A stretch of 64,000 nucleotides of DNA from Escherichia coli (GCF_041886205.1 NZ_CP169029.1), one strand, 5' to 3'. Positions 59,786 through 61,990 are shown, counted from the first letter of the stretch. Numbers and translations: made by a program. The notes: a model not told the origin generated them from the sequence alone.

Positions 59786-60175
59786 TCAGGCGGCTGCACC
59801 CGCCGTTTTCTCGTACTTACTGATAGTGATCTCGACCTTCCCTTCCGGGATAACCGGTCCCCACTCCACCAGCATTCTTTTCACCTGGCTGTCGTCTTCC
59901 CACACACCCGCGTGGGTCAGGGCGTCAAACAGCGCCTTGTTATAGTTGTCCAGATCGCGGATCCGGTTATCCGGAGGAAACAACACGATCTCCACTGAAG
60001 CAAGTACCGACGTTGGTTTTGGCAGACGACGTAACTGCTCAACTATTGCTGCGCACGCCGCGCTCTGGAATTTTCGCCCCGCCGCGCTTATCAGGCTCTT
60101 ACCAGCAAACGCCCCTTTGTTGGGGTGTCGCCAGTACGTGTTCACGCTGGGCGGAAAAGGCAGGATCAGCTTCAT
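59786..60175 (-). CDS. rusA: Holliday-junction resolvase RusA
   Basis: 129 aa. MKLILPFPPSVNTYWR...IRDLDNYNKALFDALTHAGVWEDDSQV RusA motifs. Confidence 0.9.
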   Translation of the reverse strand: MKLILPFPPSVNTYWRHPNKGAFAGKSLISAAGRKFQSAACAAIVEQLRRLPKPTSVLASVEIVLFPPDNRIRDLDNYNKALFDALTHAGVWEDDSQVKRMLVEWGPVIPEGKVEITISKYEKTAGAAA

Positions 60176-60498
60176 ACTTTCAGGCCCCTCTCATGTAACC
60201 AGTGGGTTGCACGCAGCCTTGCGTTTTCCTCACCGGCAAGCAGTGCGCGGATAATCCCGACCGCCTCGCTGTCGTCGTCCTTCACCGCGGTATGAAGCGT
60301 TATCCCCCGGGCCACGCCACGCTTTATCGTGATGACGCCTTTTTTCTCCAGTGCGCGAAGATGCTCTACCGCTGCATTCACTGAACGGTATCCCAGCATG
60401 GTTGCCACCTCCTGATTGGTTGGCGGAAAGCCACGCTCTTTCTGATAAGAAATCAGCATATCCAGCACCTGCTGCTGGCATTGAGTTAACGTCGTCAT
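60172..60498 (-). CDS. LexA N-terminal DNA-binding-domain-only protein (no S24 peptidase domain)
   Basis: 108 aa from MTTLTQCQQQVLDMLISYQKERGFPPTNQEVATMLGYRSVNAAVEHLRALEKKGVITIKRGVARGITL. It aligns along its length with E. coli LexA residues 1-70 ([68 protein letters not shown]). It ends after a short helical tail. Confidence 0.75.
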   Translation of the reverse strand: MTTLTQCQQQVLDMLISYQKERGFPPTNQEVATMLGYRSVNAAVEHLRALEKKGVITIKRGVARGITLHTAVKDDDSEAVGIIRALLAGEENARLRATHWLHERGLKV

Positions 60499-60992
60499 TA
60501 CGCCCCCACGTAATTCCCTGACAGATACCACTCATCACTCGATACAGCGCGCTTGCTGCTTTTCCGTAAACACTGCTCACGACGCGCCAGAAAATTGTTT
60601 CGTTCTGGCTGGGAGTGGCTTTCACGGAATGCCGCCATCCACACCGTTGCAGCACGACGGTATAAGCCCCTGGACTCCAGTTCTTCAGCCTGGCGGGTCA
60701 GGCACAAAATCTCCCGCGGGTCGTTAGTGCCGACATAGAAATTGCGCACAGGTCTGGTTTCACGAACTGGTTGCGGTTCTGCCTCCTGCGCTCTCTCAGT
60801 CAGGCGCGGGAAATGTCTGCGTGTATCCCCTTCACAACGGTGAGCCACACGACCACTCTGACGTAACTTGCTTGCTGACTGCAGAACGCGCTGCCGTGAG
60901 TAACCTGCAAAAGCATCCGCAATGTCTCTGGAAGTACACCCCGGATGGGCTTCAATGTATTTCTGAACTTCATTCAAAAGACTCATGATCAC
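60498..60992 (-). CDS. Hypothetical regulator with a C-terminal PerC-like motif
   Basis: 164 aa. ...RQAEELESRGLYRRAATVWMAAF... resembles the PerC/Pch family core. The N-terminus looks like a winged helix. Confidence 0.4.
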   Translation of the reverse strand: MIMSLLNEVQKYIEAHPGCTSRDIADAFAGYSRQRVLQSASKLRQSGRVAHRCEGDTRRHFPRLTERAQEAEPQPVRETRPVRNFYVGTNDPREILCLTRQAEELESRGLYRRAATVWMAAFRESHSQPERNNFLARREQCLRKSSKRAVSSDEWYLSGNYVGA

Positions 60993-61990
60993 CCCCTGAA
61001 TCCTGCTGGGATCTGGCTGTAGTCCACGTTGTCGTAACTGGCTTTGAAGTACGGGTCTTCGCGTTTTTCTGTGTACGTGCTGACGGACGGCGATAAGCGC
61101 AGGGAAAGCTCATCCCATTTTTCCCGCAGCTTCGACGGGCTGAGCACGTTACGGCACCAGAACGGATCGCGGCTGACGCGGCTGTACATCTCGCAGATTT
61201 GTTTGTGAGTACGACCATCCTGCACACACATCAGGCGAATTTCGTTTGCCCAGGCTGTCCAGTTCGGTTCTTTGGGACGAACCACCTCGCCGTCACATTC
61301 GGCAGCCTGCTCGTACAGGGCGATGATTTTTTTCCAGAGCCACTGTGCGCAGGTCAAATCATCCTGCGTCCCCCACTGGCGCTTTTTAGGGCTGAATACA
61401 ACCGCATCAGGATGGCGAGTTAAAAAATCCTGTTCAGCCGTCTGCGTGTCCGGTTGCGAAGAGTCCGGACGAGAAGGTTTTTTATCTGACGGATCATGTT
61501 TTGATTTTACTGACGGATCCCCGCCAGATTCTGACGGGTGAAAACCCGCTTTTTTGCCAGATTTCGACGCATCAAATTTTGACGGGTCAGATTTTGATGC
61601 GTCAGATTTTGACGGGTCAGATTTTGATGCGTCAGATTTTGACGGGTCAGATTTTGATGCGTCAGATTTTGACGGGTCAGAATCTGACAGTTGAGAAAAT
61701 GCCGCTGCCTGAAGCTTCGCAACGTTAAGCTGATAAACATTCGACGCATTGCGGTTACCCTGGCGACGCGCCTTACGCGTTAACCAGCCTTCTGCTTCCA
61801 GCCGTGCGATAGCCGTTCTGACGGTACTCATCCCCGCGCCAATCTGGCGTGCAATGGTTTCAATTGATGGCCAACACACACCTTCGTCATTACTGAAATC
61901 AGCCAGGCGGGCCATAATTGCCACGCTGGATAGCTTCATGCCTGACGCAGCGCAACCATCCCATACATAGCCGGTTAATTTAGTGCTCAT
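60989..61990 (-). CDS. Replication initiator (O-like: N-terminal wHTH, internal iteron-encoded repeat, C-terminal domain)
   Basis: 333 aa. N-terminal HTH ...CWPSIETIARQIGAGMSTVRTAIARLEAEGWL. Central (SDPSK/SDASK)n stretch encoded by the tandem DNA repeats. Position is downstream of cro/ymfL/ymfM. Confidence 0.75.
   Translation of the reverse strand: MSTKLTGYVWDGCAASGMKLSSVAIMARLADFSNDEGVCWPSIETIARQIGAGMSTVRTAIARLEAEGWLTRKARRQGNRNASNVYQLNVAKLQAAAFSQLSDSDPSKSDASKSDPSKSDASKSDPSKSDASKSDPSKFDASKSGKKAGFHPSESGGDPSVKSKHDPSDKKPSRPDSSQPDTQTAEQDFLTRHPDAVVFSPKKRQWGTQDDLTCAQWLWKKIIALYEQAAECDGEVVRPKEPNWTAWANEIRLMCVQDGRTHKQICEMYSRVSRDPFWCRNVLSPSKLREKWDELSLRLSPSVSTYTEKREDPYFKASYDNVDYSQIPAGFRG
61556..61690. 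repeat. Tandem 15-bp iterons (probable phage replication origin) inside the initiator gene
   Basis: Nine contiguous 15-bp units of type GTCAGATTTTGA(C/T)G(G/C). Units at 61586-61675 form three exact 30-bp repeats. Degenerate extra copies lie at about 61501-61537. Confidence 0.8.

Follow-up and report, generated by a model that had tools for sequence, protein, structure and literature searches.

This study concerns a 64,000-nucleotide stretch of Escherichia coli DNA (hereafter the window), which contains a lambdoid prophage, and a tandem array of 15-bp repeats lying inside the prophage's replication initiator gene (60989..61990, minus strand; 333 amino acids). We consider it likely, from comparison of related sequences, that the repeats are the initiator-binding iterons of an in-gene origin of this SfII/SfIV/SKA5-type lambdoid prophage, working in the manner of lambda ori and its O protein. 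The whole cis-acting element, i.e. the proposed origin, covers 61475..61699, its extent being set by frozen synonymous sites.

Direct reading of the sequence showed nine 15-bp units, contiguous and head to tail, on the plus strand at 61556-61690. Units U3-U8 (61586-61675, plus strand) consist of GTCAGATTTTGATGC GTCAGATTTTGACGG repeated exactly three times, i.e. six units with an exact core that amount to three identical copies of the 30-mer GTCAGATTTTGATGCGTCAGATTTTGACGG. Their coding-strand sequence is TCAAAATCTGAC followed by CCG or GCA. Units U1 (61556-61570, GCCAGATTTCGACGC), U2 (61571-61585, ATCAAATTTTGACGG) and U9 (61676-61690, GTCAGAATCTGACAG), all on the plus strand, are degenerate; the coding-strand forms of the first two (61556-61585), TCAAAATTTGATGCG and TCGAAATCTGGCAAA, are both carried by SfII and phiNP too. 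Where the initial annotation spoke of nine iterons, nine contiguous units are indeed present, but three of them are degenerate and the exact 12-bp core is found in just six. Its three exact 30-bp repeats were seen as described, and the degenerate copies that it had placed at 61501-61537 correspond to looser copies at 61501-61516 and 61523-61537.

Tandem Repeats Finder agreed with this reading, reporting an array at 61558-61681 with a period of 30 bp (4.1 copies, 95% matches, score 220) or, at period 15, 8.3 copies with a score of 178; the runner-up array in the window scored 59. The core TCAAAATCTGAC, with up to two mismatches allowed, matched 15 times in the window, 12 of these matches being within 61523-61688. 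Shuffled sequences gave a mean of 5.15 matches, and 15 was reached in none of 100 shuffles. Matches in the window to the stricter pattern TCA[AG]A[AT]TCTGA were confined to 61587-61687. The array is in frame with the minus-strand open reading frame 60989..61990, spans codons about 101-147 in the inter-domain linker of the initiator, and its translation includes LSDSDPSKSDASKSDPSKSDASKSDPSKSDASKSDPSKFDASKSG, of the (SDPSK/SDASK)n type; the list of open reading frames and the translation thus agree with the earlier statement that the repeats encode such a linker in frame within the initiator gene.

Selection on the DNA was assessed at synonymous sites. Because word-indexed protein searches gave mostly truncated or partial proteins, the comparisons rest instead on a scan of one genome per species, which provided 80 loci with the same N-terminal domain (56-100% amino acid identity), spanning Escherichia to Providencia, Yersinia, Erwinia and Gilliamella. 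Beyond codon 100, every complete locus has 3-9 pentapeptide units in frame and then a block of the form ...GF(H/D)P(S/P)ESGGDPSV(K/N)S..DPS.... Codons were tabulated for 339 units from 73 loci. The first serine of the unit was encoded by TCT (242) or TCC (21), AGY, TCA and TCG being absent, and the second by TCA (293), TCG (34) or TCC (2), with neither TCT nor AGY. Similarly, lysine was always AAA (235, AAG 0), glutamate GAA (46, GAG 0) and asparagine AAT (40, AAC 0). As the two serine positions use mutually exclusive codons, codon bias cannot explain the pattern. In the N-terminal domain synonymous drift was normal, with a mean top-codon fraction of 0.53 in conserved columns and 2-6 codons, mostly 5-6, in each conserved serine column. 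In the same loci the codons of the post-array block were 0.9-1.0 invariant.

A comparison of 1,953 locus pairs, divided into four divergence bins, gave the same picture. The fraction of identical residues encoded by the same codon was 0.86-0.95 in 61475-61543 as against 0.37-0.56 in the N-terminal domain, and this contrast was present in every bin. The codon freeze starts at codon 98-99 (61699 in the window) and runs through the array and a block of 23 codons (69 bp) beyond it. Since synonymous sites are frozen both in the units and in the following 69 bp, the constraint acts on the DNA. These comparisons show that the element at ~61475-61699 is under selection as nucleic acid, and not only as protein.

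We considered the possibility that the array is merely a slippage-prone, low-complexity protein linker whose repeats play no part as DNA. In-frame units that vary in number and encode a disordered peptide rich in Ser, Asp, Lys and Pro are what this would predict. Yet a linker of this kind does not account for the mutually exclusive serine codons or for lysine, glutamate and asparagine codons that are never AAG, GAG or AAC. Furthermore, in genera with N-terminal domains 56-90% identical, conservation was no lower at the wobble bases than at the rest, and residues changed while the DNA motif was preserved, as in the replacement of serine by proline via TCA to CCA in CCA GAA TCT GG. Repeats of a sister type, described below, occupy all three reading frames. 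A pure protein linker, contradicted by the synonymous-site data, was rejected as highly improbable.

An overlapping gene would also impose constraint on synonymous sites, and the array leaves four of the six frames open, with open frames at 61501-61728 and 61554-61694 on the plus strand and at 61507-61749 on the minus strand. These open frames are, however, a by-product of a stop-free repeat, and the frameshifted database versions (P0035, P0110) look like errors. Conservation within a unit follows contiguous bases (T C A A A A T, wobble included) and loosens at the spacer codon, with no period of every third base; it extends over 7-12 contiguous bases, loosens at a whole codon and shows no wobble pattern in any frame. 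An overlapping open reading frame was rejected, and we regard it as scarcely credible.

Constraint at the RNA level, through an mRNA structure or an antisense or small RNA controlling the translation or stability of the initiator message, appeared very unlikely as well. The strand folds strongly (single-stranded DNA fold of -41 kcal/mol, z -7.2) and there were sub-threshold, hairpin-type Rfam matches, but these were all to eukaryotic miRNA families and far below the gathering scores. The folding is a trivial consequence of tandem palindromes, and what is conserved is a fixed motif, with no compensatory changes seen. The RNA element was rejected, its Rfam matches being spurious and its fold being explained by the palindromes.

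The distribution of the repeats among related initiators bears on what might read them. The N-terminal domain and the repeats recur in Citrobacter phage phiNP and in the majority of the 80 loci with another C-terminal domain, Phg_2220_C. Phage mEp460_4F5 (locus L002) has a C-terminal half 96% identical in DNA to that of the window, and an unrelated N-terminal domain. Its linker contains five copies of GGT(T)CAAA(A/G)(T/C)G at a spacing of 23-45 bp (about 3541-3667 of L002, minus strand), which stand at coding positions 315, 338, 361, 406 and 431 in reading frames 2, 1, 0, 0 and 1. Four of the five copies fit the strict core GGTCAAA(A/G)TG, which has no match elsewhere in that 6.5-kb locus. As they ignore the reading frame, these repeats are DNA elements, and the presence of sister-type repeats at the same place indicates that initiators of this kind have their binding sites at this position in the linker. 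The comparison shows that the repeats and the N-terminal DNA-binding domain are co-inherited, and that it is the C-terminal domain that is exchanged. In a divergent clade (L073-L077), R58 in the presumed recognition helix is replaced by I and the units read TCA GA(T/A) TCT GAA; this apparent co-variation is a single event, which we take as a lead only. A separate observation in mEp460_4F5 is that the iterons are followed by two GATC sites and by three ACAGAGA(A/T)TA repeats in an A-rich tract.

The initial annotation had drawn the origin at 61501-61690, a range that does contain the array but falls short of the conserved element (~61475-61699), which extends to a site distal to the array, a pair of GATC sites and an A/T-rich tract. 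The consensus core, TCA(A/G)A(A/T)TCTGA, is nearly palindromic, and U9 (61676..61690), the first unit when read in gene sense, includes a perfect 13-bp palindrome, GTCAGAATCTGAC, at 61676-61688, and matches on both strands; its sequence, CTG TCA GAW TCT GAC, is conserved across genera. The distal near-palindromic site (61523..61534, TCAGAATCTGGC / TCAGAATCTGG) is separated from the array by a spacer of ~20 bp, and its codons, CCG YCA GAA TCT GGS, hardly vary among 58 loci, even across the change from serine to proline.

Two GATCCGTCAG boxes (GATC-linked copies, CTGACGGATC) follow at 61486-61495 and 61510-61519, 24 bp apart, each with a Dam GATC, and these are the only two GATC sites in 61300-61900. 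The Asp codon of the boxes was GAT in 58 of 58 and 49 of 49 loci, GAC being dominant in the units. That both GATC sites of the proposed origin are invariant suggests a control that is sensitive to methylation. The A/T-rich tract (61476..61510) is a candidate unwinding region, the GC content of 0.35 over 61480-61519 being the minimum of the gene; the Gilliamella homologue has a long pure A/T run, much stronger, at the corresponding position. A scan for IHF sites gave one site with one mismatch. The order in gene sense is thus binding domain, repeats, GATC sites with the A/T-rich tract, and C-terminal domain.

A natural variant without the entire tandem array (...QLLDSDPS/ESGGDPSV...) was found in one 13.7-kb Logan contig (P0005). 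It looks as if the first palindromic site had recombined with the distal site, in which case the variant would retain a minimal origin made of one hybrid site and the GATC boxes.

We propose the following mechanism for the in-gene origin. After induction, an early rightward-type transcript of the minus strand (cro, ymfL/cII-like, two small genes, initiator) would yield the initiator, and its N-terminal winged helix would bind the TCA(A/G)A(A/T)TCTGA cores, probably as dimers, at 15-bp intervals over 61556-61690 and also at 61523-61534. The nucleoprotein complex would then destabilise the adjoining GATC-bearing A/T-rich stretch (~61476-61519), and the C-terminal domain would recruit the host helicase. 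Since no Pfam family matched the C-terminal domain, recruitment of the helicase is a step that we infer; with no loader gene present, the initiator would presumably act alone. The same DNA also encodes the flexible (SD-x-SK)n peptide that links the two domains of the protein. The number of units may shift through slippage or unequal exchange, in steps of 15 or 30 bp; relative to the common allele, this copy has gained 60 bp. That the initiator binds the repeats, that the A/T-rich tract unwinds and that copy number affects origin function is likewise what we infer. The context is consistent with the proposal, the gene being located in a cI/cro/cII-like early region and the repeat motif being unique to this site in the window.

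Copy number had been expected to vary between relatives, and comparison with homologous prophages bore this out, with 15-bp steps in E. coli and 3-9 units across genera. In 14 of 14 full-length phage records the gene spans 942 bp, versus 1002 bp in the window, with four units each. This common allele has the exact core in just two of its four units. The unit count in the window is about twice the usual one. In an even sample of complete E. coli genomes, 31 of 32 full-length matches were 60 bp shorter than the window copy and one was 15 bp shorter. Other E. coli alleles among the matches listed were shorter by 30 bp (four records), 45 bp or 75 bp; the modal allele (-60 bp) was seen in E. coli, Shigella and isolated phages. 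No allele of the window's length was present among the sampled or top-ranked matches listed from 5,426 E. coli genomes, all of these being shorter. The high regularity of the array is, on these comparisons, a peculiarity of this copy, due to the recent gain of two 30-bp double units in its lineage.

Expansion of the linker was also seen elsewhere. In Tatumella saanichensis (L077), codons about 105-205 comprise four to five 60-bp (20-amino-acid) repeats, GLKTGPSEPQGPKSGLSESE, which are variants of the same motif, and in a Providencia locus (L061) a SKSVPSKPDVSESVA block is duplicated at codons about 100-150. To judge from these sequences, the linker has expanded independently in the two lineages. 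A large share of the database entries for the initiator are 'partial' proteins ending in or near the repeat, suggesting that assembly from short reads is often interrupted at the array or at this multi-copy gene.

Several findings weigh against the origin. The synonymous freeze indicates a function at the nucleic acid level without specifying which one. The A/T-rich tract is modest (~65-73% AT over 30-40 bp), and no match to the DnaA box TTWTNCACA with up to one mismatch was found in 61475-61699, the nearest being at 61330, 62273 and 62347. Phage_rep_O (PF04492) was absent among the Pfam matches of the initiator at E <= 0.01. A literature survey of SfII/SfIV/SfV-type phages, yfdO and lambdoid replication modules, which included the SfIV genome paper but was incomplete in its coverage, disclosed no definition of this origin. 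Finally, all 14 isolated phages have four units, a number that is thus enough for a viable phage; the extra units of the window copy are dispensable, and they could be neutral or harmful.

These points raise the question of whether the initiator or another regulator binds the array for a purpose other than replication, such as autoregulation of the initiator transcript, titration or handcuffing to limit replication, or exclusion of related phages, with the true origin elsewhere. Plasmid iterons do serve control as well as initiation. What the data establish is constraint on the DNA and linkage to a DNA-binding domain, not replication, and the weak A/T-rich tract and the missing DnaA box would fit such a role. 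However, the layout (binding domain, repeats in the linker, A/T-rich tract, exchangeable C-terminal domain) is that of the in-gene origins of lambda, P22 and phage L. Furthermore, no other repeat cluster of like quality exists in the window, and the sister type in mEp460 shows the same layout with different repeats. A non-origin array is thus, in our estimation, unlikely.

The initiator itself is composed of an N-terminal winged helix, the repeat linker and a C-terminal helical domain, as judged from the open reading frame list, Pfam and PHROG. The N-terminal winged helix-turn-helix DNA-binding domain identified with Pfam (codons 1-97; 61700..61990, minus strand) is the presumed reader of the iterons. 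Pfam HTH_36 covers residues 23-70, and the other N-terminal matches were GntR, HTH_29, PaaX, MarR and, weakly, DnaD_N and RP-C (E <= 0.01), the DnaD_N match having an E value of 1.5e-3, below the family threshold. The C-terminal domain (about residues 185-333; 60989..61440, minus strand), with a conserved IPAGFRG tail, presumably recruits the host replisome; its model is weakly similar to SPP1 G39P and DnaD-like domains, below the family thresholds. A sequence search of the PDB gave weak MarR-type matches for the N-terminal domain alone and none for the C-terminal domain, and NCBIfam profiles gave no useful match for the initiator. PHROG 391, 'replication initiation O-like', matched over residues 1-333 (E 9.5e-134). 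The initial description of the initiator as O-like holds for its architecture only: its N-terminal domain is HTH_36 rather than Phage_rep_O and no P-like loader follows.

The extreme C-terminal peptide, (I/V/L/C)P-x(1,3)-GFR(G/S/T), is kept in most of the loci L004-L082, across C-terminal families (yfdO-type and Phg_2220_C). In the window it is formed by the last seven codons (IPAGFRG, 60989-61012). Acidic residues followed by IP-x-GF in the initiator tail loosely recall the C-terminal tail of SSB, and the peptide might serve to dock the initiator onto a replication protein of the host.

The window carries an SKA5/SfV/SfII/SfIV-like prophage, 85% of 39.5-64 kb aligning with phage SKA5 at 97.7% identity, and the initiator gene is ~98% identical to the replication genes of SfII, SfIV, Kati, SKA5 and PhiR29. 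An intact copy was found in ~1,576 of 5,426 complete E. coli genomes, and the scan of one genome per species placed the family in ~30 named genera, nearly all Enterobacterales, plus Gilliamella. The initiator gene is preceded, on its own strand, by genes for a P22-Cro-like protein, a YmfL/CII-like protein, a small protein of PHROG 1170 and a DUF4222 protein, with a divergent cI-type S24 repressor. The genes downstream are PerC-like, LexA DNA-binding domain, RusA and KilA-N, an order that SfII shares, with dam in addition; Pfam and PHROG annotation showed no P, DnaC or DnaB-type gene downstream of the initiator.

The two genes after the initiator, at 60172-60531 and 60498-60992, encode a PerC-family regulator and a protein made solely of a LexA DNA-binding domain, with no S24 protease, which is a possible non-cleavable LexA mimic. 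A Dam methylase gene sits between the PerC-like and LexA-type genes in SfII (1859-2512 of L001) and in mEp460_4F5. The window has no such gene at the corresponding place (60498-60531), and SfIV likewise lacks it (PMC3851460).

A deletion hot spot at codon 78 of the initiator gene, its position constant to a few bases, is a more surprising finding than the origin. The recurrent breakpoint (61751..61759; coding strand CAGGGT/AACCGC, codon 78/79) is outside the conserved element, 67 bp upstream of the first iteron. Among 120 listed database proteins with the same N-terminus, 74 depart from it exactly after ...KARRQG (codon 78) and run on into about 58 different sequences, among them RusA, KilA-N, PerC, DUF968, terminase, capsid, tail fibre and the interior of an IS3 element. 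Twenty-four partners map to the window, all but one on the same strand and 0.6-24 kb downstream, and the mapped junctions show 2-6 nt of microhomology to GGTAAC. In E. coli K-12, ymfN/oweE of prophage e14 consists of codons 1-78 fused to terminase, and yfdO of CPS-53, a shortened copy of the initiator gene, of codons 79 to the end, including a four-unit array. The two genes share the same break within a base or two and are fragments of the same initiator gene, neither of which keeps the DNA-binding domain and the origin together.

Several causes of the hot spot were tried and rejected. A BstEII-type site, GGTNACC, occurs 27 times in the window. The sole IS3 junction, in an element that we take to be IS3 OrfA, falls inside the insertion sequence, which does not fit insertion as the cause. 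An assembly artefact was discarded because junctions, of at least five classes, are present in complete genomes as well. The breakpoint shows no synonymous conservation across genera, which sets aside a conserved functional DNA site and places the breakpoint outside the conserved origin. Deletions that share one fixed end are reportedly the classic signature of strand breaks at rolling-circle origins, as Michel and Ehrlich are said to have described in 1986. We suggest very tentatively, and with considerable doubt, that the hot spot marks a site-specific strand end or a fork arrest resulting from in situ firing of the origin, which would drive prophage decay. If so, these prophages would become cryptic through deletions produced by the origin itself, and the expanded array in the window might alter the frequency of such deletions.

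Locating the origin at ~61475-61699 would give a testable minimal replicon for a family that occurs in the Shigella serotype-converting phages SfII and SfIV and has left remnants in the K-12 prophages e14 and CPS-53. It would explain the frequent breaks of short-read assemblies inside the gene (many 'partial' proteins), and it offers a clean natural case of one DNA stretch under two codes, a protein linker and a binding array. The picture of lambdoid phage replication is unchanged by it.

In-gene origins with family-specific repeats are textbook knowledge for lambda and P22. As in lambda, the proposed origin occupies the central part of the initiator gene and encodes the inter-domain linker, its repeated sites have dyad symmetry and are followed by an AT-rich tract, and the N-terminal domain and the origin form one specificity unit to which the C-terminal domain is exchangeable. 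Lambda and Stx phages have the same order of repeats and then AT-rich region, with 4 iterons in lambda and 6 in the Stx phages 933W and P27 (PMC7466680). Unlike in lambda, the N-terminal domain here belongs to HTH_36, with no Phage_rep_O match, the units are 15 bp and contiguous rather than spaced and of about 19 bp, there is no P-type loader gene downstream, and the AT-rich tract is weaker. The initial comparison with lambda, which had named the shorter unit, the contiguous copies and the greater regularity, is a fair one, the high regularity being specific to this copy.

Gene 18 of P22 and phage L similarly has a distinct repeat family inside the coding region of an O-type initiator. In phage L there are six imprecise copies of an 11-bp repeat, so that short units do occur, and the in-gene origin has the status of a proposal (PMC8022706). 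These phages differ in carrying a separate DnaB-type helicase gene (gene 12), and their repeats and initiator domains are unrelated to those of the window.

In SPP1, the initiator G38P binds repeats inside its own gene at oriL. The weak DnaD_N and G39P/DnaD-like similarities of the present initiator, though below family thresholds, recall G38P and DnaD-like organisers, but SPP1 has a separate loader (G39P) and helicase (G40P). The gamma origin of R6K has seven contiguous 22-bp iterons read by a winged-helix Rep protein, an initiator that acts alone with host DnaB and DnaC. The iterons of such plasmids are intergenic and accompanied by DnaA boxes, whereas the array described here is coding and its element, 61475-61699, showed no DnaA box; the likeness to R6K-type plasmids resides in contiguous head-to-tail iterons and a winged-helix initiator. 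Taken as a whole, these comparisons point most likely to an ordinary lambda-style arrangement in a common, so far undescribed initiator family.

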